Assembly (NCBI GenBank): GCA_964473815.1
Contig: CAYYQK010000002.1
Location: 41,128-105,127, forward strand
Direction: 5' to 3'
DNA from: an uncultured Candidatus Saccharibacteria bacterium
Lineage (GTDB): Bacteria > Patescibacteriota > Doudnabacteria > UBA920
DNA: 64,000 bases
Below, one piece after another: positions 1 to 16,600 of this stretch. The position numbers were made by a program, and so were the translations under genes. The notes beneath the pieces were generated by a model. That model saw only the letters and a list, made by a program, of their open reading frames with translations. It was not told the origin of the DNA and searched no databases. The stretch's first letter is position 1, and each line of letters opens with the position of its first letter.

Positions 1-785
1 CCACTCTTTAAGGTGTCACCCAAATAAGAAAGTACGTACCCACCTGAAGCATTTGTAGCTATAGTCATAGTTACCGCAGATGTGTCTGAACCTGAGCCCC
101 CCGCAGTATAGGTACCATTAGCGGTTGCATATCTTGCACTGCCAGTAAGCAATGAACCAAAACCAATTGTATTATCGGTAGAAGTTGCATCAATCAAAGT
201 AAAAGTAATAGTTGGGTCAACTGTAGCCTGCACTGTAATTTGATCGTTAGAAATAACTTCTACTGCGATTGTGCCAGTGTCTGCACCAGAGCCAACTGAT
301 AGTGCTACGGTATCGTTTGAGCCAATGGCACCATTAGAAATTTGGTTGGTTCCTGTAGTCCCAAAAGTTGCGTTTGTTCCAATTTCAATTTGGACACAAT
401 TTGTTGCTGCAATAGTTCCTGTACCAGAAGTAATGGTCACGACCTGGCCGGATGAGCTCACCCCCCAAGTTGCACCTGAAGGAGATGCTGCCAAAGTCTT
501 ATCGCTAAAGCCTGAACAAGATGCAGCCGAGGCTAGATCAACATCCCCGAATGCGATGGAGCTAACGCCAGTAAAGCCAGAGGAAAAAGTCAATGTAATA
601 GTCTGGCCGGAACCAACACCAGTTGGAGTAACAAATTGAATAGTGTGATTAGAAGCTGTGCTAGCTTTTAAGCGGGACATTGTGTCCGACATTGAGGTCA
701 AAGAAGCTGCCTGTGCGGTTAAAGGACTCAATTGCATGGACACAGCTAAAAATGCCACAATTGCCAATTTGGCAATTGTGTTCAT
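1..785 (-). CDS. Secreted Thr/Ser/Gly-rich surface protein, N-terminal ~260 aa only (5' end at 785, 3' end beyond window start). Paralog of the proteins at 11047-11829 and 12857-13504.
   Basis: Open minus-strand frame from ATG (785-783) to the window edge. N-terminus MNTIAKLAIVAFLAVSMQLSPLTAQAA is a Sec signal peptide. Shares a ...T(N/A)(S/A)GGY(N/V)L... block with the neighbouring paralogs. The listed + ORF 271-639 is its antisense shadow. Confidence 0.55.
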   Translation of the reverse strand, partial: MNTIAKLAIVAFLAVSMQLSPLTAQAASLTSMSDTMSRLKASTASNHTIQFVTPTGVGSGQTITLTFSSGFTGVSSIAFGDVDLASAASCSGFSDKTLAASPSGATWGVSSSGQVVTITSGTGTIAATNCVQIEIGTNATFGTTGTNQISNGAIGSNDTVALSVGSGADTGTIAVEVISNDQITVQATVDPTITFTLIDATSTDNTIGFGSLLTGSARYATANGTYTAGGSGSDTSAVTMTIATNASGGYVLSYLGDTLKS

Positions 786-884
786 TTGGTTTTTAATTTG
801 AATAATCTTTTGTTTCATTATCTGCAGTTATTCTGCACAACCTCAATTACATTAATTATAGCACAATTTGTGCCTGCGAGCAAG

Positions 885-1493
885 CTATTTTTTAGTTGGG
901 GTTTTTGCGGTGTTAGTATTTGTAGTAGCCTTCGTAGAAGTATTAGTGTTGGTGGACTTTGTGCTGGTATTGGTATTTGTAGTGCTAGTATTAGTATTTG
1001 CTGGGGTTTTTGGCGCAGAATTACTATTTGTGTTCAAAGTATTATTGTCATCTAAGTTCACAGGAGCAACTTCTATAATCTTATTTGTGGACGGGCGGTA
1101 TAAAATCGCCTTTTTGTTTGTAGTAAATATCAACACCTTATCCCCAATTTGAGCATTGGCAAAGAAGGGCTGATCTTTCAAAGGAGCCAAATCGCTAACT
1201 GTAGCTATAGTAGGCTGTTCGCTTGGTAGATCAATTAATTGACCGACTTTGTCTAACAACGCTTTGGTTTCTTCTTCAGTAGCTTTCTGTGGGTTCTGCT
1301 TCAAATCTGAGATTTGTTTTTTTAGATCCTTGCTTTGCTTGTATTGCATGGCTGCAAACACCCCTGCTGCAATTAAGATTATTAACACAATAATCCAGGG
1401 TAGTTTGGAAAGAAATCCCTTTTTTTGACGGCTTGAACCAACTGATCTTTCTTCAGTCGCCATGTCGTCATCAATAAGTTTTAGTTTTGGCAT
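885..1493 (-). CDS. Single-pass membrane protein with an extracellular domain and a C-terminal Thr/Asn-rich repeat tail.
   Basis: ATG at 1493-1491. Hydrophobic segment LPWIIVLIILIAAGVFAAM after a charged N-terminus. C-terminus TNTNTSTKSTNTNTSTKATTNTNTAKTPTKK. Co-oriented with the giant surface-protein gene. Confidence 0.5.
   Translation of the reverse strand: MPKLKLIDDDMATEERSVGSSRQKKGFLSKLPWIIVLIILIAAGVFAAMQYKQSKDLKKQISDLKQNPQKATEEETKALLDKVGQLIDLPSEQPTIATVSDLAPLKDQPFFANAQIGDKVLIFTTNKKAILYRPSTNKIIEVAPVNLDDNNTLNTNSNSAPKTPANTNTSTTNTNTSTKSTNTNTSTKATTNTNTAKTPTKK
900..1035. repeat. Imperfect short-period (about 6 nt, GT-rich on +) tandem repeat encoding the Thr/Asn tail of the 885-1493 protein.
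   Basis: Repeated ggtattggtatttgtagtgctagtattagtatttg-type units are visible in the sequence. Confidence 0.5.
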
Positions 1494-1590
1494 TTGTTTC
1501 AGTAAGTTTAATACTTGAAATTATTATACAATATTTCTACTAAATTATAAAACCTACGCCAAACTTGCGAGCGGGGTTTTATAGAAATTT

Positions 1591-4500
1591 TTATTCTGAT
1601 GGAGAGCTATCACTGCTATCCGACGAATCTGGTGGCAACGACTGTTCAGTTGAGCTGTCAGACGGTGAGCTATCTGCAGGGGTTGCCTCTGTTTCAGTAC
1701 CGCTTGAGCCATCAGTAGTTGTTTCAGTCGCTGATCCTGAAGAAGTATCCGTGTTAGTATCAGATGAGGTACTATCCCCCGCGACAATTCCTGGTTCTGG
1801 GGTATCAGCTTTGCCATCAGACAAACTAATTTTGGCATCTTTGACTGCCAAAGCAATCCAACTAAACATTAAGTCGCGAGGAGCAGGCTTGTTCAAAATA
1901 ATTGTGAAGCCTTTTTCGTTTTTGTTGATGACTAAATATTGAACGTCAGCATCAAACAAAGACTGTGCTGCACCTTCTTGTTCCTTTTGGAGCTTGTCGA
2001 TAATTTTTGGATCAGTAGTCTTTGTGTACGATGGATCAGATTCCAATGTTGGGCCAATATTAATAATTGGTTGTGTTAAGTAAGCGGAATCAAAATTGAT
2101 TGTAACCTTGGAGTCACCTTCTTTGAACTTGGCAAAGCCGGCTGTGTCAGAATTGAAGTATGGACGACCAATGAAGTGCATGTCGCTTAGTACAGAAATA
2201 AATTTCCCGAGTGCGCCAATACTATCAATGGTTAATCCATTGGCAGTAATTTTAGGTGTCACAATTTCAGTCTTGGCTATTAAGCGGTCAAATTGTGTTT
2301 GCTCGATAGCAACAGCCTGAGTATTTGCAGAGGCTGTCTCTGGATCGGTTTGGGTCATTAACCCAGCCAAGAATTGTTTAGCATCAAATGTAGTATCTGG
2401 TGTTATATCGGCGACTTGTAGCGGATTTTCGACTACAGGGTCGATGCCACTTGCAGGAGTAGCCGGCTGATCAGGAGGGTCATCCTGCCAGACACGAACG
2501 TAGTCAATGTCTAAGATTGTAGTGACTGCGGCATTAGAGTTCACATTAGCGGCCAAAGTAAGACCTAAGGCAGTTGCTCCTGGACCCGCAGCTGTTACGC
2601 CTGATCCACACTCAGTTTCAACTATACCGTCAGAAGTATTAACATCAACAAAGAAATGGATATCACTATTTGAACGCACTTCAATGCGCAAGTATGCATA
2701 TGCTGTTGTAGTGAGAGTTCCGGAACAGATTTGAACCGAACCGACAAGCGCGCCGCCCGAGGCAACATAACCCTGCCAAGAGTTCGAACTCGTAGGACAA
2801 GTCGGTGCTGTTGTGGAATATGTTGTACAGTTACTAAAGAATACGCCATTAGAAGGCATGCCATTTTGGCCAGCACCCAAGTCACTTAAACCAACTATTA
2901 CTTCGGAGTTTGCATTGGCGTTTAAGCCTGTACCTGCAGCTTTTACTTTAGCTGTAAACACCGGCAAGTTATTTGCTGCAAATGGTTTGTATGGAGCACC
3001 GGCAGTAGTACCACCACTAAGGTACTCTAAACAGTTAGCTTTTGTTGATGCGGTGGCAATTCCAGTAGCTAAAATTTCTTCGACACCATATTGAGTGGTG
3101 TTGCTTGGTTGCCACATTTTACAGGTGCCACCGAGAGTAGTACCCCCAACAATACTAACACCCAATTCTCCAGTGTTTGCAGCTTGTGGGCCGGTGGTTG
3201 GCGCACAAGCAGCCACAGCTCCACCGCCTCCTTGCCAGTCACCGCGAGCAAAAACTGAACCAATGGTATTTGCTGTCGCAGCTGGGGCACAGTTAGTAGT
3301 TTTAAAGACGTTAAATTCTTCACCAAAATAAGAGTTCTTATCCATGAACGCTCCAGTAATTGCCAAACCACCAAAGTTACTGCCCATGTGCTTGATGTTG
3401 AAGATGCTGTTGGAGCTTGAGTTATTAACATTGAATACGTTTTGGCCTAATACTGCACTCACAGCATTTAAGTTAATAACACTGTCTACAGTTAGGCCGT
3501 TATTGAGATCGGCGAAACCGTCAACACGTAAGTCACCAACCACTCGGGTATTACCCGCAGTTAAAGCACCACCGCCAGAATAGTCAGTTAATGTTTGAGA
3601 GGTTAGACCAAGTAAATCGAGGCCTCCAAAGATTGACACTCTTGCTCCGCTGGCAAAGAAAGCCGAAGCCGGGAGAGTAGTAGTGCCATCATAACCATTA
3701 AAGTTATATAAATATGTATTAACGTACAAAGATGTTGCCTGCTGACGAGCTGCAGGTAAAGGATTGGTACTAGTTGCCCAAGCTCCTAATGGTCCCACAC
3801 TATTTACCTTTGCATAATAAACAGTTGCAACTGGAGCGCCGGCTTGTCGTCCCCCCATGTTAAATAAATAGCCATTCAAGATCCCTGTTGTATGAAACCC
3901 AGTAGCAACAGGCAAAGAGGTAGCAGCTGTCCAAGCTCCTAAAGTACCATCATTGGCAGGGGTTGCGTATTCAACAGTAGTAAGAGCTGTATTACATAGA
4001 CCACCGGCGTCGCTACAACCGCCAATTGAATAAATTTTTCCATTAACGTTCATAGTACTTTGCCCGTAACGACCGCTTCCTAAAGCGGTTACCCCGGTCG
4101 TGGTCCAACCTGAAATGCTACCATCTGCATTTAAACGACCTGAATATACGGTGGTTTGAGCAGTAGCGTTATACCCACCAATGTAGTAGACGTAGCCATT
4201 AGAGAAAATTGCGGTACCATATCCTCTTGCAGCAGGTATACCAGTTGCATTAGTCTGCCAAGACCCCAAAGAACCATCGCTGTTAAGCTTGCTATATTTA
4301 ACTGTAGATATCGGTGTAGTACAAGCTGCAGTAGCTGAAGTATCAGTGCAACCACCAATTACATATAAGTAACCATTAGCTACAAAACTAGCATGGCCAT
4401 AAACTCCTGGTAATAAGTTATTATTTGCTTCTTGAGTCCATGACCCGGGAGTTAAAGATCCGTCAGCGTTAATACGACCATATAATATGGTTGTGTAAGC

Positions 4501-7500
4501 TCCTCCGCTTGTACCGTTAGCTGTAGTTCCACCAATCATATAAGCAAAACCATTTGCGGTTACTGATGCGGACGCACGACGAGCAGTTGGTACGGGCGTG
4601 GAGTTTGATTGCCATGGCTGGATATCAGCATTTTGCGCAGCGTTTAAAGTAATGTTTCCATAGTTGGCATCAACTTGAATGTTATTTCCAGGTGCAGTGT
4701 AATCCATTGTAGAAGAGCCTGGAATAAGGGTAAATCCATCAATATAAACAGTAGGGGTACCGGCAGCATTTTGTTTAATAAATATGTTGCTGGTTGAAGT
4801 GTTAATAGTGGCACCAGTAGTGAAGGTACAAGTAAATTCTGTCCATGTGGTAGTGACAGCAGAGTCTGAACAACCACCTACGTCACTGCCGTTGTCCTGG
4901 CGGTCAAGTCTTAGAGTGGCAGTACCACTGGCGGTCTTCGCCCAGAAAGTTGCAGCGTAAGGAGCATTTGCCGCAAAAGGATAACTGTATTGTGCGCCAT
5001 CACCTACTGCATCACCGGAAAACTTCAAAGTACCAGAACCGTACTTGGCGTTGCTTGCTGCATTATCCCAAACTGGCCCAGTAGTTGGAGTACCTTTAGC
5101 AACCCAATTATGAATGTTTTGTTCAAAGGATGCATTGTAGATTTGGTTTGTAGTGGTACGGCCATCAACTTTTAATCTCACTGCTGTATCCTTGAGAACA
5201 AAGGTATGATCACCTAAAGAAGACAGCATACCCATAGTCCAAGTAGTATAGTTAGGTTGGTTAAATGTAATCGCCGCTGTATTACTCGAAGTAGAAGTGA
5301 CTTGAATATTTGTATCCGCAGAGGAAGAAACTTCCAAAGTATCGGTTGGGGTTGCAGTACCAATACCCACGCGTCCACCGCCAGCAGGAACAATGATGGC
5401 ATAGTTAGCTGTCGTGGCTCCGGACGCTGACACAGTAAGCCCCACGTTAGTTGCAGTAGCTCCTGTGTGGGTGTTGCTAATTTGAGCGCCATAAGTTGTT
5501 GAAGCTCCAGCTACTGCACCGGAAGTAGAAATATTTAGAGCTGTTTGATTGCCAAGAGCATTGCCGCCTGAGACGGTTAAGTCAGCCAAGGAACCAGATG
5601 TAAGAGTCGAGGAAGCAAGAGAAAGACCTGCAGTTGTACCAGTCCCGGTAGTTGTTCCTAAAGTCATTTTTACTGATCCAGTTGAGGCTGGTGCAAATGT
5701 AATGTTCCCAGATGTTGTAGTAGATAAAGCCAAATCCGCACTAGTACTCGAAATGTTATTTCCTGCCGCAGAAGTAATAGTCAAAGCACCGGAAGTGGTT
5801 TTCCAAAGAGATGCACCATTACCAGTAATATTAACTGCGCCCGTGCCGCCGCCGTTTAATGTTAAGGCGCCGGTTCCTGTAGCTGAAATGGTTAAGGCTT
5901 TGTTGGTGTCAGTAGAAGTAATATCTGTACCGATTGTGCCGTTAAAGACCAAGCCGTTAGTTAATGTACCCGCGGTTCTGGTTACATTCAAACCACTTGT
6001 AGTAGTGCCAGCGCCAGTTTGTTCAAACACCAACCCATTGGTCACTGTACCAGAAGCATTGTTACCTGAAATATACAAAGCTTTGGATGCAGAAACGTGG
6101 TTATTAGTAACAGTAAAGGCGGTTGCTGTGCCCAAACCCGACGCCAAAGTGATTGCCACATCGTTACCAGAAGTAGTGGTAATGGTATTGCCTGATCCGT
6201 AAGCAGTTTGCAAAGTTCCCCCACCTCCACCACAACCAGAACAAGATGATACTGTCAAAGCACCAGCACGAGAAATTTTCCAGGTTGAACCTGTACCCAC
6301 AATATCATTTAAGTTTGTTCCGGATGCGTTAGACAAGTTGAATTGCAAACCTGTCTGGTCAAATGCACCCGTCCCTGAAAGTGTAATAGATTGACCAACT
6401 AATGCACCGGTTTGTGCAGTTGAATCGGTAAGGGCATTTAATGTTCCTGTTGTGGTTGTGGATGTTACGGATGAAGTTCCAAATCCTGTTAGGGCAATGG
6501 ATCCGGAAGTACCAGTTAAGTTAAGCGCACCAGTAGACAATGTTAAGCCATTGCTGGCAGTTAAGGTTGAAGCCGAAGTAATAGTTCCGGAACTTGTGGT
6601 AGCAATTGTTCCGGTAGTGGAAATATTGATATTAGAAGCCAAGTCCCCACCTACTACTGAAGAGAAAGATGGAGCACCACTGGCATTACCATGCAATATT
6701 GTGGTTGAAGTTCCAAGACTCCCTAGCACACTTGGGGCAACACCAGTACCACCTCCAAGCAAAAGAGCGTTAGCGGTAAGAAGTCCTGAAGAAGCCATGG
6801 TGCCAGTACCGGAAAAGTAAGGAATGCCACCACTGGTACCGCTCGCTATTCCGGTGCCTCCCTGAGCTACAGTCACTGCGGCGTTACTGGTTAGAATAGT
6901 CGCGCTAGCATCAGGCAAGGTAAAAGTTTTTTCTGCAGTAGTAGGACCAGAGAATTTAGTGAAACCGTTTCCAGTGCCACCATTGGCACTACCTAATATG
7001 CCTGTGATAGTTGAAGTACCTAAAGCAACTGTGAATCCGCTCCCGGTTGCGCCGGCAGTAAGAGTGCCAGTACCAGTGAGTGAACCATAGGTCCCAACAA
7101 TTGAACCACTTGGCACTGTACCAGTTAACTGAGCAGCATTAATCAAACCTGCAGCACTAATTAAAGATGTGCCGTTGTAATTTAACAAGTCTGTCCAGTT
7201 GTTACCACTACCAGCGTAAATTGCGTACTTCGGACAAGTTCCTGCTGCACAAGTATTAGTAGCTACAGTGCCGAGGTTGATACCAAATGTATTGTGGGTG
7301 CCAGTGCCGGAAGAAACATTTAGAGTAGGGTTTAAAGTCAAACCAGCAATACTCGAAGTGTTTGGACTGGCAATTGTCGAAGCATTTGTATAAGTTAGAT
7401 TTAAAATTGAGTTTGCTGAACCCGAAGACGGATTTAACACCGCATTGCTAAATGTCACTAAATCAGTTCCTGTCTCCGAAGAAGATCCAGTCACAGTTAA

Positions 7501-9153
7501 GCCGGCTGCATTAGATGTTTGGGCTACTGCAATTTTGCCTGCGGACCCTGTGGTGCCAATTCCCAATCCTCCGAACTGAGGATTAGAAGTAGTAGCAATA
7601 TCCTGAACTGTTCCAATTTGAATCGTACCATGACCATTGGTCACTGTGGTTTGGTTAGCTGTATTAGAGATTGTTCCCAAAGTAAGCGTGTTGCCGGTGG
7701 TGTTACCAATAAGTAATTGACCATCGGTGTAGGAAGTTTGACCAGTACCACCTTTGTTTACGGCGATTGTGCTAGCCGACCAAGTACCAGTAGCAACTGT
7801 ACCTAGTGTGGTAATATTAGCTGAACCAGCCCAGGTAGAAAGCGCGGTGTTTTCCACATTGCCCAATCCTACATCTGTAGAAGACAAAGTTGTCCACGCA
7901 GGGACAGCACCATTAACACCCGTTCCTGTTTGGCTTAAGAATTTCTTAGTTGAGGAAGTATTTGGAGAAAGTAGGGTTGTAGTATCAGTATTGGACTGAT
8001 ACGGAATTGATCCAAGCAAGGTTGTATTGTTACCCCCTACCAAGTTTGTGGCTTTGCCCGATGTTAACCCGGAAGCCGTACCGGTTAAGTTGGTAGCAAC
8101 ACCAGAACTTGGTGTTCCCAACGCTCCCCCGTCATATAGCAAAGTAGCGGAGGAGTTAGGCAGAGTGAATGTTTTTTCTGAAGTAGTAGGACCAGAGAAT
8201 TTAGTGAAACCGTTTCCAGTGCCACCATAGGTGCTACTTAGAATTCCAGTGATAGTCGATGTTCCTAGGGCAATAGTAAATCCTGCACCAGTTGATCCTG
8301 CGGTCAATACACCGGAAGTATTAACATTAAATGCATTCCCTGTTCCTGCTGTTAAAGCACCAGAGACATCAACATTCCCAGTCACATTTAAGTCACCACC
8401 AGACGGGGCAATGGTCAAATCACCACCGGAATCTGCGGTAAAACTAGAATAATTTGAGCCGTCATAAGAAACGCGGAATTGTTCAGTGGTCGCAGTAACT
8501 TGCAGCTTGGCAGAAATACTAGAGGTGTTAATGCCAACATTGCCACCAGTTAAGTTAAGCCCTGGCGCGCTTCCTGCAACTGTTAAAGTGGTAAAGCCAT
8601 TTGAAGCTACGCCAACAGTTAATTTGTCGGAAGTGTCATAACTTAGCGAAGCTTGTGGTGTTGTTGTATTAGTAATATCAATTGAACCAGTTCCTACCAA
8701 ACTATTAGCAACGAATGCGGCCGGTACAGCACCCACTTTTTTACGTGGGGCCATTTCCCCATCCCAACTCGGACTACCAGTTCCACCGATGTTTACAGAT
8801 AAGAATAAAGTTTTATTAAAATCAACGCCCGACAAAGAGGTTACTTCACCTAACATTACATTGAATAAGCCGTTTGTGACCTGAACTTTGTTGGCACCGG
8901 TCCGAGTTTCAGTCCACAGCAAATTACCACCAGTTGGTGGGCTGCCACTACCTAAAGCATCGTAAAGCTTAAATTCCATATTGTAGGTACCATCAGCCAC
9001 TGCTACATAACTACCATTGGTTAATTTACCCTGATAGTTAAAGACCGGATTAAAGGCTGCCTGCGCCAATTGTTTTGGCTGATTTGCGACTAAAACAATC
9101 CCAGAAATCAACAAAATTACAATAATTCCCAATTTTTGCATTAGAGATCTCAT
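1591..9153 (-). CDS. Giant (~2520 aa) secreted cell-surface protein or adhesin. Signal peptide, long Thr/Gly/Ser/Asn-rich beta-type repeats, Kelch-like beta-propeller blades, a Cys-containing C-terminal globular region and an acidic Ser/Asp/Thr tail.
   Basis: 7.6 kb open frame. Likely start is the ATG at 9153 (MRSLMQKLGIIVILLISGIVLVANQ...), with GGAGG 7 nt upstream. The ORF track extends to 9198. Repeated (Y/F)xIGG motifs (YMIGG, YVIGG, YYIGG, YSIGG, FNMGG) are typical of Kelch blades. C-terminal tail is ...DSSDSSDSSPSE. The five plus-strand ORFs listed inside it are antisense shadows. Confidence 0.85.
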   Translation of the reverse strand: MRSLMQKLGIIVILLISGIVLVANQPKQLAQAAFNPVFNYQGKLTNGSYVAVADGTYNMEFKLYDALGSGSPPTGGNLLWTETRTGANKVQVTNGLFNVMLGEVTSLSGVDFNKTLFLSVNIGGTGSPSWDGEMAPRKKVGAVPAAFVANSLVGTGSIDITNTTTPQASLSYDTSDKLTVGVASNGFTTLTVAGSAPGLNLTGGNVGINTSSISAKLQVTATTEQFRVSYDGSNYSSFTADSGGDLTIAPSGGDLNVTGNVDVSGALTAGTGNAFNVNTSGVLTAGSTGAGFTIALGTSTITGILSSTYGGTGNGFTKFSGPTTSEKTFTLPNSSATLLYDGGALGTPSSGVATNLTGTASGLTSGKATNLVGGNNTTLLGSIPYQSNTDTTTLLSPNTSSTKKFLSQTGTGVNGAVPAWTTLSSTDVGLGNVENTALSTWAGSANITTLGTVATGTWSASTIAVNKGGTGQTSYTDGQLLIGNTTGNTLTLGTISNTANQTTVTNGHGTIQIGTVQDIATTSNPQFGGLGIGTTGSAGKIAVAQTSNAAGLTVTGSSSETGTDLVTFSNAVLNPSSGSANSILNLTYTNASTIASPNTSSIAGLTLNPTLNVSSGTGTHNTFGINLGTVATNTCAAGTCPKYAIYAGSGNNWTDLLNYNGTSLISAAGLINAAQLTGTVPSGSIVGTYGSLTGTGTLTAGATGSGFTVALGTSTITGILGSANGGTGNGFTKFSGPTTAEKTFTLPDASATILTSNAAVTVAQGGTGIASGTSGGIPYFSGTGTMASSGLLTANALLLGGGTGVAPSVLGSLGTSTTILHGNASGAPSFSSVVGGDLASNINISTTGTIATTSSGTITSASTLTASNGLTLSTGALNLTGTSGSIALTGFGTSSVTSTTTTGTLNALTDSTAQTGALVGQSITLSGTGAFDQTGLQFNLSNASGTNLNDIVGTGSTWKISRAGALTVSSCSGCGGGGGTLQTAYGSGNTITTTSGNDVAITLASGLGTATAFTVTNNHVSASKALYISGNNASGTVTNGLVFEQTGAGTTTSGLNVTRTAGTLTNGLVFNGTIGTDITSTDTNKALTISATGTGALTLNGGGTGAVNITGNGASLWKTTSGALTITSAAGNNISSTSADLALSTTTSGNITFAPASTGSVKMTLGTTTGTGTTAGLSLASSTLTSGSLADLTVSGGNALGNQTALNISTSGAVAGASTTYGAQISNTHTGATATNVGLTVSASGATTANYAIIVPAGGGRVGIGTATPTDTLEVSSSADTNIQVTSTSSNTAAITFNQPNYTTWTMGMLSSLGDHTFVLKDTAVRLKVDGRTTTNQIYNASFEQNIHNWVAKGTPTTGPVWDNAASNAKYGSGTLKFSGDAVGDGAQYSYPFAANAPYAATFWAKTASGTATLRLDRQDNGSDVGGCSDSAVTTTWTEFTCTFTTGATINTSTSNIFIKQNAAGTPTVYIDGFTLIPGSSTMDYTAPGNNIQVDANYGNITLNAAQNADIQPWQSNSTPVPTARRASASVTANGFAYMIGGTTANGTSGGAYTTILYGRINADGSLTPGSWTQEANNNLLPGVYGHASFVANGYLYVIGGCTDTSATAACTTPISTVKYSKLNSDGSLGSWQTNATGIPAARGYGTAIFSNGYVYYIGGYNATAQTTVYSGRLNADGSISGWTTTGVTALGSGRYGQSTMNVNGKIYSIGGCSDAGGLCNTALTTVEYATPANDGTLGAWTAATSLPVATGFHTTGILNGYLFNMGGRQAGAPVATVYYAKVNSVGPLGAWATSTNPLPAARQQATSLYVNTYLYNFNGYDGTTTLPASAFFASGARVSIFGGLDLLGLTSQTLTDYSGGGALTAGNTRVVGDLRVDGFADLNNGLTVDSVINLNAVSAVLGQNVFNVNNSSSNSIFNIKHMGSNFGGLAITGAFMDKNSYFGEEFNVFKTTNCAPAATANTIGSVFARGDWQGGGGAVAACAPTTGPQAANTGELGVSIVGGTTLGGTCKMWQPSNTTQYGVEEILATGIATASTKANCLEYLSGGTTAGAPYKPFAANNLPVFTAKVKAAGTGLNANANSEVIVGLSDLGAGQNGMPSNGVFFSNCTTYSTTAPTCPTSSNSWQGYVASGGALVGSVQICSGTLTTTAYAYLRIEVRSNSDIHFFVDVNTSDGIVETECGSGVTAAGPGATALGLTLAANVNSNAAVTTILDIDYVRVWQDDPPDQPATPASGIDPVVENPLQVADITPDTTFDAKQFLAGLMTQTDPETASANTQAVAIEQTQFDRLIAKTEIVTPKITANGLTIDSIGALGKFISVLSDMHFIGRPYFNSDTAGFAKFKEGDSKVTINFDSAYLTQPIINIGPTLESDPSYTKTTDPKIIDKLQKEQEGAAQSLFDADVQYLVINKNEKGFTIILNKPAPRDLMFSWIALAVKDAKISLSDGKADTPEPGIVAGDSTSSDTNTDTSSGSATETTTDGSSGTETEATPADSSPSDSSTEQSLPPDSSDSSDSSPSE
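6926..7060. repeat. Intragenic direct repeat, copy A (about 130 nt, roughly 46 nt identical then diverging), within the giant surface-protein gene.
   Basis: ttttttctgcagtagtaggaccagagaatttagtgaaaccgtttccagtgccacca... recurs at 8172-8306. It encodes the duplicated segment G(F)TKFSGPTT(S/A)EKTFTLP. Confidence 0.7.
8172..8306. repeat. Intragenic direct repeat, copy B, of the 6926-7060 segment.
   Basis: Same ~46-nt identical core followed by a diverged but protein-level similar sequence. Confidence 0.7.
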
Positions 9154-9401
9154 AGTGCAGCCTCCTTCTGATGAGTTTCGCGTTCTTCCAGTCGCCAATG
9201 CTTAGCTTTTTGCTCAGTCAGATATGACAAAACCGCATCACTTGTAGTGAGCCAGTTTCGGGCAATTTTTATTGCTTTGAGGTGGCCGGTCCTAGCGCGC
9301 AAACTGAGATACTCCGCTGAATACGGAGTGAACTTAGCTGCCTCGTGAATTGAGATCAGTTTACCTGATGCGAGAAAGGACTGTTGCTCCTTGTCTGACA
9401 T
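9150..9401 (-). CDS. Small helix-turn-helix DNA-binding protein (excisionase/MerR-type HTH_17-like), 83 aa.
   Basis: LISIHEAAKFTPYSAEYLSLRARTGHLKAIKIARNWLTTSDAVLSYL fits the HTH_17 pattern (..EAA......L..L.R.G.L.A.KIGR.W.........YL). Its stop overlaps the start of the giant gene in an ATGA arrangement. Confidence 0.55.
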   Translation of the reverse strand: MSDKEQQSFLASGKLISIHEAAKFTPYSAEYLSLRARTGHLKAIKIARNWLTTSDAVLSYLTEQKAKHWRLEERETHQKEAAL

Positions 9402-9689
9402 ATTGTGGTTTTGTTTTTTGTTTTTGTTTCGCTGCGTCCGGAGGGAATAAAAATTCCCAGGAACAAAACTCCGTTCAATTTCTTGAACAAGGTTTAGTCT
9501 CTGGGAAATATCCGGTCAAATTGTCTTTTTGTTTCTTTGATGACGACCGCTAATTTTGGCGAGTCGACTTCAATATGCGCTATCCAATATTTCTTAACTT
9601 AATTATAGCAAAAATTTCATATCTCGTCAACAACAAATAATGGGTATCCGATACTTTTTTGTTAGTGAGTTTTGTTAATTATTGTTAAC

Positions 9690-11021
9690 TTAAGTTTTAA
9701 ATTTTGTTTTTGGTTTAGTTCTAACCCTTCGTGGCTTCTGAGGCATGATGACATTCACCGGCCCTGCATGTCTATAGTGCATCCGAACGAGAAAATAGAT
9801 TGGGACAAACACTACCACCGAAAATATAAAGGCCCACCAAGGAATTGGATTTTTAGCTGTCCCCCCTACGCCCTTAGCATTTACGGAGAAGATTTCAAAA
9901 CTCCCAGCTACTGTGGATATAACTTGGCCTAAATTATTGAAAATCGTTACAGAAACATGATATAACTGAGCCAAAATTGCTGGAGGGATTGTGGCGAAGA
10001 ATTCTTTGGTCGTTTTATCAAAGGAGAATAAATATGAAGCTAATACGTTATTTTGATCCTTTACCCCCAAAACAATCAATTTAGTCCCTTCGGGTAGTAA
10101 CGCATAAGGAATACGCAAAGTAATATCTGAACCTGCGGGGATCTTTGGATTATTTGCGTCTACTGTGGCTGAGCCATGATTGTAAACTATGGTAAAATCG
10201 CGAAAATTCACTATTTTGCTTGGCGGTTGAGGGGCTTGAGGAAATTGAAAATCCACCACAGGTGCATCAGAATAGGAATTTTGATTTTGTCCTATTTGTT
10301 GACTGTAAGGCAGAATTCTGGCAATTACGATTGCTCCCGGGGAATAATTCCCTGATCTATCAGCTGCGAAAATGCTGTAATAGTATGTAATCCCAGGGTT
10401 TACTGCCCCATCGGAGGTTTCTTGAACCGTACCTTCGTAAATTACCAACCCACTGCCTGGATCCGGTGGGAAAAACCGTTCCGACCGCACAATTCGGACT
10501 TTAGCAAAATCTTTATCTGCCGGATTTTGCCATGATAAAATTATCCGACCGTGATTTGGTGTGGCTGTAAAATTAGTAACATTTTGTGGTGCGGTTAAAT
10601 CTGGTTCAGCTAAAGTCACAAAAGTTCCCTGGTAAACTCTTTGATTCCCAGCCTGATCGATAGCTGTAATTGTGAAATGATAATTTGCCTGTGGCTCCAA
10701 ATTCAGAATTTCGGCACTGTGCTTTTTGTCGTATTTTTCAACAGTAATTTGCCCATCACCAACATCATCGCTTTTACCCCAGGCGACTTTGCCCAAACTA
10801 ATTTCGTCTGTTTGCCAAAAAACTACTGCACTTTTTGCATTGGTTTTTACTGAAACATTAAATATTAACGGGGCAATATGATCAGCAAATTGTGATTGGC
10901 TACCATGAATATCAACTGGCTGTTCAACATTTAAGCTACTTGTCTGAGCCAAAGCTAAATTCGGCAACATCAACATGCTGATCAAAAAAATCAAACAGTA
11001 TTTTCGACCGGTCGTAAACAT
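9690..11021 (-). CDS. Surface-anchored protein with tandem fibronectin type III-like domains, an N-terminal signal peptide and a C-terminal transmembrane anchor with a basic tail.
   Basis: ATG at 11021. Signal MLMLPNLALAQT. Two segments with FN3-like hallmarks (AVVFWQTDE...G...Y.F...A.D.AGN; P.NV.NFTATP..GRIILSWQNP.D.DF..V.IVR). C-terminus WWAFIFSVVVFVPIYFLVRMHYRH...KPKTKFKT. Confidence 0.65.
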   Translation of the reverse strand: MFTTGRKYCLIFLISMLMLPNLALAQTSSLNVEQPVDIHGSQSQFADHIAPLIFNVSVKTNAKSAVVFWQTDEISLGKVAWGKSDDVGDGQITVEKYDKKHSAEILNLEPQANYHFTITAIDQAGNQRVYQGTFVTLAEPDLTAPQNVTNFTATPNHGRIILSWQNPADKDFAKVRIVRSERFFPPDPGSGLVIYEGTVQETSDGAVNPGITYYYSIFAADRSGNYSPGAIVIARILPYSQQIGQNQNSYSDAPVVDFQFPQAPQPPSKIVNFRDFTIVYNHGSATVDANNPKIPAGSDITLRIPYALLPEGTKLIVLGVKDQNNVLASYLFSFDKTTKEFFATIPPAILAQLYHVSVTIFNNLGQVISTVAGSFEIFSVNAKGVGGTAKNPIPWWAFIFSVVVFVPIYFLVRMHYRHAGPVNVIMPQKPRRVRTKPKTKFKT

Positions 11022-11046
11022 TGATTAACAAAAGTTAATTTGTGAA

Positions 11047-11829
11047 TTAATTCGGGACTGCAGTGACTAAAACCGTGGCAGCATAAGTACCGTTCGGTTG
11101 AATATGACTAGAACCCGATTCTGCCCGAATTTTAACAGTAGTGCCTGTCCCACTAGGGTGATTGCCAGTGGTACGTTTGGCAATTAAAGTATCAGAAGTA
11201 GTTAATGCGTCCCAACAATGCAATGACGCATCTGCAGAACCGGTGTTACAAGCACTGCCATTGTCTTTGTATCTTTGAATGATATCAGTGCCTTCCGGAG
11301 TAAATCCGAATTCGCTGTCTGTAGATAAAACGGACCAGTTATAATCGGGGTCACTAGTTGCTGGAGTGTAATTGTTAAAATCGCCGTTGGCGCTACGCAT
11401 GGCCGGATTAGTACTGGAGTGCACAAACATACTATAACCAGACTGGCTATCAGTAGTTACTGTCCAGGACATACTACCGTCCCCTGTCCCTCCAGAAATA
11501 CCACTAATCGAAGGGGACATTGAAACACTACCGTTGGAAGTAATGGCAATATAAACTTGTTGGGAACCCAAAAAACCAGCATCAATTTTATAACTACCGC
11601 TTGAGGAAGGACCAGTCCCTACTTCCCCCAAACTGTTCAATTCTTTGTATGAACCCGAAGATGATTGCTGACCACTAGCATTAAGTGAATCAATCGGTAT
11701 ACGGTAAGTGCCGCTACTCATCTGAGCCCAAGCTTGCGGGGTGTTGAATATAAAAAGCAAGAGTGCAATCACAGCGGATTTGCACCATTTGCTTTCCCTC
11801 CACGATTTGTAGTTTAGAGGATTGCGCAT
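11047..11829 (-). CDS. Small secreted surface protein, WxL-like (W-x-V motifs). Paralog of 12857-13504 and of the partial gene at 1-785.
   Basis: Signal peptide (...ALLLFIFNTPQAWAQ). Shares with 12857-13504 the blocks SWTVTT(D/N)S, YTPA.S(D/E), (N/T)WSV(L/S)S..EFG(F/Y)...GTD and a C-terminal GTY(A/S)AT(V/I)..TA. Confidence 0.55.
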   Translation of the reverse strand: MRNPLNYKSWRESKWCKSAVIALLLFIFNTPQAWAQMSSGTYRIPIDSLNASGQQSSSGSYKELNSLGEVGTGPSSSGSYKIDAGFLGSQQVYIAITSNGSVSMSPSISGISGGTGDGSMSWTVTTDSQSGYSMFVHSSTNPAMRSANGDFNNYTPATSDPDYNWSVLSTDSEFGFTPEGTDIIQRYKDNGSACNTGSADASLHCWDALTTSDTLIAKRTTGNHPSGTGTTVKIRAESGSSHIQPNGTYAATVLVTAVPN

Positions 11830-11850
11830 TGCTATTTACGGTTGCTAACG

Positions 11851-12849
11851 TTATTTCTTGCGTTTGATTTCAAACGAACCGGTCACTTTGCGCAAAATGA
11901 AGAATACAATAATTATCGCTAAGATTATTCCGACTAAGATTTTCCAAGGCAAAACCCAGAAAGCAATGGTTTTGGTGTCAGTTACATCCGGATTTTCCTG
12001 ATACCCACGGTCAATCACGGCAGTTGCAGTATAACGCCCAAGCGCGAAACCACTGTCCCATGTCACAGTTGCGCTACGCAAAGATGCTGGCAAACTGAAG
12101 AACGGTGGAATATCTAAGTCTTTCACTTTATGCCCAAACATGTTCTTAACCTCAATGTGACCCTGAGGAATCAAGTGGACACTACTATTATTCTCAAATA
12201 ATGCTTCAAAAGTAAACGGACCCTTTTCATAAAAAGGCTTACTGCTGCCGGAAAGCCGGAAATCCTTTAAATCAGCATCTTCTTTAACATGGCCAGCAAC
12301 ACGGACAAAGTACAATGCACCAAGACGAGAAATGGTCCGGGCTTCATTATCATTAGTATCAGCGGAAGTATTAGATGGTTGTGAAGAAACCAATACTGAT
12401 GCAAATTTACCGCCTGGTTCAGCATCAGCAGGGATATTAATAGCTACATTAATAGTAGCGGTTTGCTTTGAACCGAGCTTGAAAGTACTGACTTCAGGTT
12501 TGATGTAATCTTTTAAAGAGTAAGGGCCTTTATCATTACCAAGTAAAACTACAACCCGACCGGGATCTTTAGATCCTTGAAAATCTTCGATACTAACAGT
12601 AAAAGTTTGTTGACGGTCGGTTCGGTTAGTGACAGAAAGTGTCTTCGTAGTTTTTTCGCCAGGTTTTAATATGACCTCTTGCTTTGCTGGCTCCAATACA
12701 AAATCATTCCGAATTTCAACCGGAGCATCTTTGATTTCAATTGCGCGAGCCGCGTTGGGAATTACAAGCATGCCAATAACAGGCAGCAGAGCGAAAGTGC
12801 GGCGTAGAAGACGACGATGTAACGAAACAGTTTGTTTAAATAAAGTCAT
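11851..12849 (-). CDS. Cell-surface protein with DUF916/DUF3324-like (CscA-like) architecture: signal peptide, extracellular domains, C-terminal TM anchor.
   Basis: Preferred start is the ATG at 12849 (MTLFKQTVSLHRRLLRRTFALLPVIGMLVIPNAARA). The ORF track extends to 12903, overlapping the upstream gene. C-terminus WKILVGIILAIIIVFFILRKVTGSFEIKRKK. Family assignment is by architecture and context only. Confidence 0.5.
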   Translation of the reverse strand: MTLFKQTVSLHRRLLRRTFALLPVIGMLVIPNAARAIEIKDAPVEIRNDFVLEPAKQEVILKPGEKTTKTLSVTNRTDRQQTFTVSIEDFQGSKDPGRVVVLLGNDKGPYSLKDYIKPEVSTFKLGSKQTATINVAINIPADAEPGGKFASVLVSSQPSNTSADTNDNEARTISRLGALYFVRVAGHVKEDADLKDFRLSGSSKPFYEKGPFTFEALFENNSSVHLIPQGHIEVKNMFGHKVKDLDIPPFFSLPASLRSATVTWDSGFALGRYTATAVIDRGYQENPDVTDTKTIAFWVLPWKILVGIILAIIIVFFILRKVTGSFEIKRKK

Positions 12850-12856
12850 TTTTGTT

Positions 12857-13504
12857 TTACTGGGCAGTCGCTGTAGCTGTAATAGTAGCGCTGTAAGTAC
12901 CACTGGCTGCGAAAATACCAGCTTGTTCTGTGGCTACACACATAGTTGAAGCAGTTCCAGAAGTACCTGTTGGAGCAGTAGCGTTAGCAATTTGGTCAGC
13001 GCTACCTGTTAGGTCAAAATCACGCCACTTAAGAGTCGTGCTTGGAACATCAGCACCAGCAATACAGTCTGCATCTGTTTCCCAAGTTCCTGTTGGAACA
13101 TCTGTACCTCGAGCTGAGTAGCCAAATTCAGCAGCACTAGAAACTGACCATGTTTCTGGAGTTTCAGAGACCGCTGGCGTGTAATCAGCAATGTTACCGC
13201 CGCCGCCGCTTCGGGAAAGAGCAGGAGCTGTAGAAGCATATAAGGTCAAATTGTACCCACCGGCACTATTCGTTGTAACTGTCCAAGAGGCACTACCTAC
13301 AGCAGTATTCTGCGAAGTACTCAAGTGAGTCATGGTAATGTCAGATGGTGCAGAAATTGTAATTCCGCTATCTACAACCTGACTTACGTTAACACTATCG
13401 GTAACTGATTGGGCAACTAATCCTTCTGGATGAAGGATAACAAAACCACCTGCGACTATAATAATGCTGGCCAAACCGGTGATTAAGTTTTGTTTTAATT
13501 TCAT
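12857..13504 (-). CDS. Small secreted surface protein, WxL-like. First gene of the surface cluster.
   Basis: ATG at 13504. Signal-anchor LITGLASIIIVAGGFVIL. Motifs SWTVTTNSAGGYNL, YTPAVSE, TWSVSSAAEFGYSARGTD. C-terminus GTYSATITATATAQ. Confidence 0.55.
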   Translation of the reverse strand: MKLKQNLITGLASIIIVAGGFVILHPEGLVAQSVTDSVNVSQVVDSGITISAPSDITMTHLSTSQNTAVGSASWTVTTNSAGGYNLTLYASTAPALSRSGGGGNIADYTPAVSETPETWSVSSAAEFGYSARGTDVPTGTWETDADCIAGADVPSTTLKWRDFDLTGSADQIANATAPTGTSGTASTMCVATEQAGIFAASGTYSATITATATAQ

Positions 13505-13532
13505 TTTCTTAAAAGGATTATTAACTGCATAA

Positions 13533-13563
13533 ATTATACCACATTTTTACCAAGCTGTGGAAA
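13533..13563 (-). promoter_or_regulatory. Candidate sigma70-type promoter with extended -10 (TGgTATAAT) and TTCCAC -35 at 18-nt spacing, driving the surface-protein cluster.
   Basis: Minus-sense ttccacagcttggtaaaaatgtggtataat lies about 30 nt upstream of the ATG at 13504. Confidence 0.45.
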
Positions 13564-13598: not shown

Positions 13599-13622
13599 AA
13601 AACCACTCGTTAGAGTGGTTTT
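13599..13622. terminator. Bidirectional intrinsic terminator downstream of rpoC.
   Basis: aaaACCACTCgttaGAGTGGTtttt: 7-bp stem, 4-nt loop, A-run 5' and T-run 3'. Confidence 0.6.
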
Positions 13623-13628
13623 AAAAAG

Positions 13629-16600
13629 CTAGAACAACGGAGCTGGGGTTTTTAAATTTTCTTCAGCGATTTCATCGGAGAAACCAGTTCCAGCAGGAAT
13701 GAGTTTACCAATAATTACATTTTCTTTTAACCCACGAAGGTAGTCAGTCTTGCCGGTTACCGCAGCTTCAATTAACACACGCGTGGTTTCTTGGAAAGAT
13801 GCCGCTGCAAGGAAACTTTCAGTAGACAGGGAGATTTTTGTAATACCCATTAACAGCTGTTCGGCCTGCGCTGGAGCGCGACCTTCGGTTACAAGTTGTT
13901 CGTTGACTTCCTGCATACGAGATTTATCAACCATGTCCCCCAGTACAAATTCGCTGTCGCCACTGTCGGTGATGCGCATCTTACTAAACATTTGACGCGC
14001 GATAACTTCAACGTGCTTGTCGTGAATCTGCTGACCCTGAGATACGTAAATATCTTGTACTTCTTTCACAATATATTTTTGTGCGGCTTCTGGTCCTTGC
14101 AAATCGAGCACCTGGTTTGGATTCAAATTACCTTCTGTAAGCGGTTGACCAGGGTAAACCAAGTCACCATCTTTAACTGTAAGGGAGAACCCACGAGGGA
14201 TGATGTATTCGCGCAAGTCATCACCTTCGTGAACGAGGCGCATGCTTTCACCTTCGACATTCACAATTCCAGCAGCCTGAGCCTTAACCAAAGCACCAGA
14301 ACTGTCAGTATACAGAGAGTCCCCGATTGCAACGTGAGTACCATTCTTAATTACAGCTTCGGACCCGCTAGGTAATTGTAAATGTTCGGTTTCAACATTC
14401 TGTCCCTCAATGCGAATGATTTGTTCTTTAGTTGGAGCAATGCTTACCGAAACTTTGCCAGCGATTTCAGCAACTGTTGCCATACCTTTTGGTTCTCGAG
14501 CTTCGAACAATTCTTCTACACGAGGCAAACCTTGAGTAATATCTTTTTCAGATGCAGAACCTCCACTGTGGAAGGTACGCATTGTAAGCTGGGTTCCTGG
14601 TTCACCAATTGCCTGGGCAGCCACAATACCTACTGCTGCACCGAGTTCCACCATGGCGTTGAAACCAAGGTCATAACCGTAACACAACTGACAAATACCA
14701 CGAACTAATTTACACTTCAAAACTGAACGACACTTTACTTCGGTAATCCCAGCATCAACAATTTGTTTTGCAGTTTGTTCATCAAGACCCTGATTTTTCT
14801 TAGCCAAAACTGTGCCATCGGCTGCCTTTACTTCTGCAGCTGCCACACGACCAAACAAACGATTTTCGAATGCTTGGTTCATGGCTTCGCTTTCTTCTGC
14901 AGTAATAATGTCAAAATCTTTGGTGCCGCAATCTACAGCATTTACCACTACGTCCTGAGCAACATCGACAAGACGGCGGGTCAAGTACCCAGCGTCAGCA
15001 GTACGGAGCGCAGTGTCAGACATACCTTTACGTGAACCGTGAGTGGAGATGAAATATTCAAGTACGCCCAAACCTTCTTTAAAGGACGCGCGAACTGGAA
15101 GCTCAATAACGTCACCAGCCGGGTTTACCACAAGACCTTTCATACCAGACATCGCGTTAATCTGTGACATAGAGCCACGACCACCGGAGTTAAAGATATA
15201 GTTTACAGAGCTGTGATCAACTACATTTGAAGATACATCCTTCGCTAACTTTTCACCCGCATCTGCCCAAATTTCAACAATACGATTTTTACGTTCATCA
15301 TCAGTTAGCAAACCTTCTTGGAACTGATTATAAATTGCCTTCACTTGTTCATCAGCTTTTTCGAGCAATAGATGCTTTTCTTGTGGTACAGCCAAGTCGT
15401 CCATGCCCCAAGAAATTCCAGAGCGCTTCATATAAGTAAAGCCGGTGCGCTTAATGTCGTCAATTAATTGCGCAGTGCGTTCGCTGCCAAATAAACGGTA
15501 AGCTTCGCGAACCAAAGTTTGTAATTTTTTCTTGTCGAAGTTTTCATCGCGGTAACCCATTTCTTCAGGGACAACGCGGTTGAAGATCAATCGACCAACA
15601 GAAGTTTCTCGCATTTCACCATTTGGCATGCGCACTTTAATCTTCGCTTGAATGTGAACGTGCTTGTTATTATAAGCAAGGACAGCTTCTTGTTGATCAG
15701 AGAAAATTTTGCCTTCGCCTTGTAAGCCATCGCGAATTTTAGTGATGTAGTAGCAACCCACCACCACGTCTTTATCTGGAGTCATCACTGGTTGACCTGA
15801 CGCAGGCTTCAACAAGTTGTGAGAAGATACCATAATTTCGCGCGCTTCTTTTTGTGCAGCTTCAGTAAGAGGGACGTGCACAGCCATCTGGTCACCATCG
15901 AAGTCAGCGTTGAACGCTGCACAAACCATTGGGTGAAGCTGGATCGCCTTCCCTTCAATCAATACTGGTTGGAACGCCTGGAAACCCAAACGGTGGAGAG
16001 TAGGTGCACGGTTAAGAAGTACGAAGTGATCGGCAGTAACTTCTTCCAAAATGTCCCACACTTCAGTACGGCCTTGTTCAATTAAACGGTTTGCACTGCG
16101 TACGTTATGGGCGTATTCGCGGCCGATCAATTTAGAAATAACGAACGGCTTGAACAATTCCAATGCCATAGCTTTTGGCAGCCCACACTGGTGCAGCTTC
16201 AAAGTTGGGCCTACCACAATTACAGAACGACCGGAATAGTCTACACGTTTACCAAGCAAGTTCTGACGGAAGCGACCCTGCTTACCTTTGAGCATGTCTG
16301 CCAACGAACGGAGCTTGCGCTTTTGGCCAGTTGAAGCAGTTACTTCCTTACCATGACGAACACTGTTGTCGATCAAAGCATCAACTGCTTCCTGCAGCAT
16401 ACGCTTTTCGTTACGGGTAATAACTTCAGGCGATTTAATTTCCAAAAGTTTCTTCAAACGATTGTTACGGTTAATAACACGGCGATACAAGTCGTTCAAG
16501 TCAGAAGCAGCGAAACGACCACCATCTAATTGCACCATTGGACGCAAGTCAGGTGGGATAACTGGCAAGTGCGTGATCAACATCCATTCCGGACGAAGAC

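Follow-up and report, generated by a model that had tools for sequence, protein, structure and literature searches.

Pam pili are surface filaments of bacteria of the Candidate Phyla Radiation (CPR), and two filaments of Ca. Mycosynbacter amalyticus have been solved by cryo-electron microscopy (cryo-EM), together with the definition of the pam operon (Troman et al., bioRxiv 10.64898/2026.03.03.709456). In this system, an internal linker strand is present in the two-domain pilins PamA and PamB, the tip pilin PamT has a single domain, and PamC and PamD are FimC/PapD-like chaperones bearing a C-terminal transmembrane (TM) helix. PamR combines two RbmA-like FnIII domains with a C-terminal TM helix and an N-terminal strand and was proposed to serve as the fibre end and anchor, and the pam operons have a tail-fibre-like protein consistently co-localised with them (10.64898/2026.03.03.709456). 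We here analysed a 64,000-nucleotide (nt) stretch of an uncultured Ca. Saccharibacteria bacterium (contig CAYYQK010000002.1, hereafter the window), in which eight genes clustered beside rpoB-rpoC are probably those of a Pam pilus variant, a surface filament that a monoderm CPR bacterium would assemble by donor strands with the help of a chaperone and without an usher. CPR bacteria rely on attachment to host cells, yet the surface structures identified in them are very few.

The second system of comparison is the csc/WxL cluster of Lactobacillales and Listeria, which encodes a WxLIP (DUF916, DUF3324 and a TM helix) along with small and large WxL proteins (Siezen 2006; Hassan & Williamson 2022, 2023; PDB 9i1y, 9i25), and the function of which has been unclear since 2006. 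The WxL domains are always C-terminal and carry their N-terminal strand on a long unstructured tether (Hassan & Williamson, PMC9772566), and in AlphaFold models of WxLIP with WxL, a strand of WxLIP completes the WxL sandwich (PMC10599100). In the PDB, entries 9i25 and 9i1y show a WxL domain surface protein (chain A) in complex with EfmWxLIP1 (chain C), a solved structure for which no paper was found in the literature searched. In the same literature, including the Hassan & Williamson papers and the Pam preprint, we found no link of WxL or WxLIP to donor-strand or CPR systems. A first-pass annotation of the window had already read the eight genes as a candidate surface attachment system, which holds, and had ascribed to them the logic of csc clusters, which is borne out for the chaperone but not for the subunits. 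Its judgement that the family links were too weak for a described system is now outdated, with the Pam preprint of 2026 at hand and NCBIfam Pam models matching proteins of the locus.

Pilin-like subunits, chaperone and anchor

We propose the secreted protein p215 as the shaft subunit, and p260 as a PamT-like pilin that acts as a tip or adaptor subunit. The two are true paralogs by BLASTP (38% identity over 149 amino acids (aa), E 1.7e-16), and their families align along the entire C-terminal domain. The homologs of p215 (n=241) are all unannotated, the few named ones being CPR, and the relatives of p260 (n=171) are nearly all unnamed, with the few named ones from Patescibacteria; no Pfam domain was found in the relatives of either family. 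In the representatives listed, out of 898 proteins found, the p215-type domain lies at the extreme C-terminus, and some of these proteins are 1365-2461 aa long. The NCBIfam model of PamT, a CPR-type pilus protein (NF058579, equivalog cut-off 240 bits), matched p260 with 43.9 bits (E 1.8e-11), an alignment confined to model positions 8-129, and matched 17 of the 17 p260-type relatives tested. Neither p215 nor p260 matched the CPR_Pam_pilin_C model NF058581.

The AlphaFold2 (AF2) model of p260 reached an overall predicted local distance difference test (pLDDT) score of 79, with residues 90-260 at 85-97 and residues 34-88 disordered, and Foldseek matched it to the PapG pilin domain with a probability of 0.98. 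The structural matches listed for the pilin-like subunits are chaperone-usher pilins, among them CsuA/B and the pilin domains of FimH and PapG, although the likeness of the pilin, and also of the chaperone described below, to chaperone-usher proteins is one of fold only, with 6-16% sequence identity. The three S-x-(N/S)-Y-x-(I/L) repeats of p260 occupy residues 37-90, are conserved family-wide and predicted to be disordered, and may serve as additional strands or as the place where the giant protein g2520 docks.

In the window, p215 and the FN3-repeat protein r443 bear similar N-terminal strands, VTDSVNVSQVVD and TSSLNVEQPVDI, with the common pattern V-x-V-x-(Q/L)-x-V. Among the orthologs drawn from 80 genome loci, the motif [VILF]x[VI]x[QL]x[VIL] stands right behind the signal peptide in 41/43 p215 orthologs and 33/56 r443 orthologs, as against 2/63 p260 orthologs and 0/52 giant orthologs. 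Furthermore, the Q/L position covaries between the pilin and the anchor of each locus (QQ 9, LL 9, LQ 2, QL 0; Fisher p 3e-4, with kinship ignored). We propose r443 as a pilus terminator and membrane anchor resembling PamR; the likeness is one of architecture only, in that both carry FnIII domains along with an N-terminal strand and a C-terminal TM helix. The Pfam fn3 model scored 25 bits at residues 55-127, with further FN3-like matches at 139-178, in agreement with the first-pass description of an anchored FN3-repeat protein, and the TM helix spans residues 393-415.

The gene between the two pilin genes encodes c332, which we propose to be the pilin chaperone, comparable to PamC/PamD. It scored 26.1 bits against PF06030 (DUF916), just under the cut-off of 27.3, whereas its paralog c337 outside the window passes with 39.1 bits, and PF06030 matched 38/46 c332 orthologs, one of which is named DUF916 by NCBI. 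The family profile of c332 also matched EfmWxLIP1 (E 6e-7), and hhalign against four Firmicute WxLIPs gave 93.9%. In the AF2 model (pLDDT 90.6), two beta-sandwich domains are accompanied by a hairpin loop of low confidence (about 159-173) and by the C-terminal TM helix, a feature found in all four chaperone paralogs. Structurally, c332 is matched best by the solved WxLIP of E. faecium (EfmWxLIP1; 193 residues superposed), and then by CfaA, FimC, SafB, YadV, CsuC, EcpB, PapD, CupB2 and FaeE. The earlier assignment of this gene as DUF916/DUF3324-like was thus right in its first half; DUF3324 (PF11797) was detected neither in c332 at E<=1 nor in the 46 orthologs at E<=0.01, though c332 does have a second Ig (immunoglobulin) domain and the TM helix.

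The count of eight genes is correct for the window, but the cluster runs on past base 1 and is truncated by the window edge; the source contig (L001, a 103-kb ENA scaffold) adds at least eight genes, for three pilins, three chaperone-like proteins, an HTH (helix-turn-helix) protein and a second giant. The gene placed at 1-785 is present there, but it really belongs to a 369-aa protein starting from 818. This protein, p369, is the first one encoded in a second Pam-like cassette, which extends past the window edge (L001:10676-20609), and the genes that follow encode proteins of 379, 340, 364, 337, 354, 66 and 3161 aa. The cassette includes p364, a pilin with a PamT-like N-terminus, the TM-anchored chaperone paralogs of 340, 337 and 354 aa, the 66-aa MerR/excisionase-type HTH protein h66 and the 3161-aa giant. 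In the search with NF058581 (CPR_Pam_pilin_C, Pam pilus system pilin subunit; cut-off 55 bits), p369 passes with 58.4 bits, and p379 and p364 scored 53.8 and 27.7 bits, respectively. Both p369 and p379 are two-domain pilins and are 70% identical to each other. A bridge to the in-window pilins is offered by p364, the N-terminus of which resembles that of p260 (E 0.002) and the C-terminal domain those of p369 and p379 (E about 1e-4). Judged from the sequences, p369 is tied to p215 and p260 only through p364 and the NCBIfam Pam models; of the three small paralogs originally counted, the p215/p260 pair stands, and the third has no significant direct similarity to it.

The order p215, c332, p260, r443, (HTH), giant N-terminal domain recurs in most of the 80 CPR loci, and most of them have, behind the anchor gene, a gene for a giant with the conserved N-terminal domain. 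The labels of the relatives, from which the taxonomy of the loci is taken, are Ca. Saccharibacteria (the closest, 58-65% identity), Yonath-, Taylor-, Nomura-, Kaiser-, Falkow-, Campbell-, Zambryskii-, Nealson- and Jacksonbacteria, and Paceibacterota. A Pam-like cassette is thus widely distributed and by no means confined to the organism whose Pam pili were seen. Contigs with the CPR cassette were also filed as Nanoarchaeia, 'uncultured archaeon', Burkholderiales and Azotimanducaceae metagenome-assembled genomes (L036, L067, L071 and L077), and these are probably mis-binned CPR contigs.

The giant g2520, a proposed adhesin of sugar-binding type, opens with a conserved N-terminal domain (mature end AFNPVFNYQGKLT) containing a near-invariant A(F/I)NxQINYQGKLT, and the mature N-terminus QINYQGKLT is near-invariant across >50 loci. 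Behind this domain, the protein consists of a fibre region of ~1100 aa rich in G/T/S, a module resembling a carbohydrate-binding module (CBM; about 1357-1477) and a Kelch propeller (about 1520-1870), and it ends with a C-terminal region closing in 'DYVRVW' and an acidic Ser-rich tail. The propeller, which the first-pass annotation had recognised, has six blades with ~55 aa spacing, roughly at 1536-1870; it scored 20.9 bits against Pfam Kelch_1 (cut-off 20.1) and matched the designed Kelch propeller 7onh in the PDB with E 8.5e-11. The CBM-like module matched a xylanase CBM with E 0.022. Upstream of the giant gene, h83 is a proposed local regulator, which had likewise been called an HTH protein correctly; its matches to Pfam HTH_17 (E 0.022) and to a PHROG excisionase family (E 0.007) are weak, and a homolog occurs in many loci at the equivalent position or upstream.

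The WxL-domain identity of the small secreted proteins was tested and rejected, as Pfam PF13731 matched 0/57 family members. The small-protein family reached a probability of 0.2% in hhalign with eight WxL domains of four Firmicute plasmid loci, its profile found nothing among the PDB sequences, and the W-x-L tripeptide is absent from p215, p260, p369 and p379. The idea that their W-[ST]-V resembles W-x-L is without statistical support. Among the structural matches listed for the pilin-like subunits, the solved WxL chain 9i25_A does not appear, and the locus lacks the two or more PF13731 proteins beside WxLIP that mark a csc cluster. A sortase pilus was also ruled out, as neither an LPXTG-like motif near the C-termini of the cluster proteins nor a sortase family among the Pfam/NCBIfam matches was found.

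Assembly model and alternative explanations

In the proposed mechanism, all components would be exported by Sec, and c332, as a membrane-anchored two-Ig chaperone, would cap the incomplete Ig fold of the newly exported subunits. The fibre would then be started at its distal end by p260, which has a groove domain but not the p215-type donor strand, while p215, with both the strand V-x-V-x-Q-x-V and a groove domain, would polymerise head-to-tail into the shaft. Finally, r443, which carries the same strand and a TM helix but no pilin domain, would plug the last groove, stop the growth and tie the fibre to the membrane. The HTH-giant-m202 unit, under its own promoter, would supply a lectin-rich giant adhesin (CBM-like and Kelch) coupled to the pilus genetically, and the second cassette outside the window would supply canonical two-domain Pam pilins and three further chaperones. 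We infer the order of p260 as tip, p215 as shaft and r443 as terminator and anchor, with c332 as the tethered chaperone, because the motif distribution, the Q/L covariation and the C-terminal pilin domain fit it. Donor-strand assembly itself is supported indirectly, by the common covarying strand together with the chaperone-usher-like pilin fold.

Several observations weigh against this model. Its shaft subunit p215 matched no Pam, WxL or Pfam model, none of the p215-type relatives matches any Pam model, and the PamT score of p260, at 44 bits, falls far under the equivalog cut-off. As for the chaperone, c332 matched no Pam-specific model, and was likened to PamC/PamD by their description, not by their sequences. 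Direct comparison of p369 with p215/p260 was not significant by BLASTP (E about 1.4) and out of register by hhalign (56%), and hmmsearch gave a collinear, non-significant match for p364 only. The covariation counts ignore phylogeny, and some of the motif extractions are noisy; alternating hydrophobic residues also occur in the N-terminal repeats of p260, which makes its tip role uncertain. The giant g2520 is without a pilin domain, TM anchor or LPXTG motif that would account for a link to the fibre. Moreover, the polymerisation of p215 and the binding of c332 to p215 are predictions.

The locus might instead encode a non-filamentous surface complex of the csc/WxL type, in which c332 would hold one or two small secreted proteins and the giant on the wall and no polymer would form. 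The WxLIP homology of c332 in both sequence and structure speaks for such a complex, as do the occurrence of small proteins alongside large ones with the same C-terminal domain, which mirrors small and large WxL proteins (PMC9772566), and the WxLIP strand that completes the WxL sandwich in the models (PMC10599100). However, the subunits failed every WxL test that was run and are nearer to chaperone-usher pilins than to the solved WxL chain, the strand common to pilin and TM anchor speaks for a chain that forms and is then terminated, and the related Pam proteins form filaments seen by cryo-EM. The cluster genes also include neither an LPXTG protein nor a sortase gene. We regard this explanation as improbable.

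It is less improbable, though still rather unlikely, that only the small proteins, the chaperone and the anchor make up a pilus, and that HTH-giant-m202 is an independent adhesin operon merely adjoining it. The HTH-giant unit indeed comes with a structured leader and a strong promoter-like site of its own, and the giant bears neither a pilin domain nor a p215-type strand. Against this separation, most of the 80 loci, from distant CPR lineages, have a giant with the conserved N-terminal domain behind the anchor gene, and the pam operons consistently have a tail-fibre-like protein beside them (10.64898/2026.03.03.709456). A prophage or tail-fibre remnant, with an excisionase-like HTH protein, tail-fibre-like giants and FN3 proteins of phage origin, was also considered. 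The FN3 region of r443 matched the PHROG tail-fiber-J family (E 3.8e-11), h83 weakly matches an excisionase family, and h66 is of the excisionase/MerR type. Nevertheless, the PHROG search found no family for the giant or the pilins, on which ground phage origin was rejected, and no capsid, portal, terminase or integrase family was found among the cluster proteins scanned. With the housekeeping flanks rpoBC, ruvA, mur ligase, uvrB and polA, the uniform GC content and a cassette order conserved in most of the 80 CPR loci, this origin is hardly credible, and the Pam-like filament remains our preferred reading.

Layout and genomic setting

Table 1. Features of the cluster and its upstream boundary; coordinates refer to the window
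Feature	Coordinates	Strand	Description
rpoB	17524-21090		upstream of the cluster
rpoC	13629-17501		upstream of the cluster
Hairpin AAAACCACTC-taac-GAGTGGTTTT	13622-13599 (13599..13622)	-	just 3' of the rpoC stop; inverted repeat, then an A/T-rich run; read directly
Promoter-like site TCCACA-17-TG-TATAAT	13561-13533	-	extended -10; 10/12 positions, TG present; 5' of the first pilin gene
p215	12857-13504	-	215 aa; small secreted, single-domain; signal peptide, N-terminal strand VTDSVNVSQVVDSGI, ~160-aa C-terminal Ig-like domain, Cys pair 147/189
c332	11851-12849	-	332 aa; two Ig domains, DUF916/WxLIP family, PapD/FimC-like fold, C-terminal TM helix 294-326
p260	11047-11829	-	260 aa; signal peptide, three S-x-(N/S)-Y-x-(I/L) repeats, C-terminal chaperone-usher-pilin-like Ig domain, Cys pair 194/205
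r443	9690-11021	-	443 aa; FN3-repeat, C-terminal TM helix 393-415, N-terminal strand TSSLNVEQPVDI
Second promoter-like site TTGACG-17-TG-TATAAT	9630-9602	-	11/12 positions; precedes the HTH gene; stronger than the first
Promoter-like site and structured 5' leader	9402-9630	-	hairpin and U-run; upstream of the HTH-giant unit
h83	9150-9401	-	83 aa; HTH-only, excisionase/MerR-like HTH_17; stop overlaps the giant start by 4 nt
g2520	1591-9153	-	2520 aa; secreted giant, cleaved signal peptide
m202	885-1493	-	202 aa; single-pass membrane protein, TM 25-52, extracellular domain, Thr/Asn-rich tail
p369, N-terminal 272 residues	1-818	-	two-domain Pam pilin, 369 aa in full (L001:10676-11785); start 818 per the public gene call

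All eight open reading frames (ORFs) lie on the minus strand within window positions 1-13563, at the coordinates first given, and their lengths equal the public gene calls on identical contigs where the source-contig locus overlaps. The co-oriented ORFs, the hairpin behind rpoC and the extended -10 promoter are thus all present as first described. The hairpin is terminator-like, judged from its sequence, and as such would form the upstream boundary of the cluster, though a consensus scan of the region did not flag it. The promoter sites are consensus matches only, from a scan that yielded about the number of sites expected by chance in the region; the second strong promoter-like site before the HTH gene suggests two transcription units. 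The leader that follows it has a minimum free energy of -46.2 kcal/mol (z -3.57), with the promoter-proximal part kept in four close relatives, and its long hairpin with the U-run looks like a terminator or attenuator. An Rfam search of the cluster, this leader included, gave no match to a riboswitch or other RNA family. GC content is even across the region. Homologs of m202 adjoin giant genes in L008, L010, L051 and L064, and the protein itself showed no significant family match in Pfam or NCBIfam.

Among the loci checked, rpoB-rpoC lies upstream only in L009 and L010 (rpoB 90-92% identical), and on this evidence the position looks lineage-specific. The synteny check called for by the first-pass annotation thus gave rpoBC adjacency in two loci only, and the genes expected around rpoBC, rplJL upstream and rpsL-rpsG-fusA downstream, were not found in the flank examined. 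The other flank carries ruvA, femAB, a Mur ligase gene, an ABC transporter, uvrB and polA. The FemAB-family and Mur-ligase genes adjoin ruvA (window 22097-24387, plus strand) and indicate peptidoglycan cross-bridge synthesis in this small genome. Farther along the window, we noted a tRNA-Ile with the anticodon UAU (55674-55750, minus strand), and tRNA-Leu(UAA) with tRNA-Cys(GCA) (61899-62070).

Comparison with known systems

With the chaperone-usher pili (Fim, Pap, Csu and CFA/I), the locus shares the pilin fold, the chaperone fold, the pilin domain at the extreme C-terminus and an N-terminal extension with alternating hydrophobic residues. In contrast to these pili, there is here neither an outer membrane nor an usher gene, the chaperone is anchored in the cytoplasmic membrane, the fibre would be ended by a TM-anchored FN3 protein instead of a PapH-like subunit, and sequence similarity is undetectable. 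No usher family was found among the 16 cluster proteins with Pfam and NCBIfam, and a weak PapC_C match (E 0.18) in one relative of alignment A3 is noise.

The csc/WxL clusters share with the locus a chaperone-like protein of the WxLIP kind that has two Ig domains and, at its C-terminus, a TM helix, as well as small secreted proteins with a conserved C-terminal domain and related large proteins that end in the same domain. They differ in that the subunits here are not WxL proteins, DUF3324 is undetected by sequence and the bacterium belongs to the CPR, not to the Firmicutes; moreover, the locus has a TM-anchored FN3 terminator, and no LPXTG (CscD) protein or sortase. The homology of c332 to DUF916/WxLIP suggests a strand-complementation chaperone role for these proteins in Lactobacillales, Enterococcus and Listeria. 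We tentatively suggest, as a possibility somewhat short of an even chance, that Pam pili and the Firmicute csc/WxL clusters are branches of one ancient monoderm pathway, with DUF916/WxLIP as a tethered, PapD-like, strand-donating chaperone, and that the in-window cassette is a minimal, widespread and undescribed Pam subtype presenting a giant adhesin. If this is true, WxLIP would serve in assembly as a chaperone, and not in binding the host or peptidoglycan.

The Pam system is the closest, with its restriction to the CPR, Sec signal peptides on all parts and no usher. Both systems have a PamT-like single-domain protein (p260 here), a TM-anchored PapD/FimC-like chaperone (c332), an FnIII anchor with a strand (r443) and a giant alongside, and the off-window p369 passes the NCBIfam pilin domain model. 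They differ in that the in-window pilin p215 is single-domain with an N-terminal strand, whereas PamA/PamB are two-domain, and in that many of the homologs here bear Parcubacteria/Paceibacteria-type names, whereas the preprint stresses Saccharimonadia and Microgenomatia; furthermore, ATP synthase genes were not found in the flank examined here. The DUF916/WxLIP relationship of the chaperones is not mentioned in the preprint. The new elements are therefore the minimal single-domain-pilin cassette with its wide spread, the covarying strand common to pilin and anchor, and the WxLIP homology of the tethered chaperone, and the cassette provides concrete candidates for shaft, terminator and adhesin. 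Part for part, the locus corresponds to the published Pam list.

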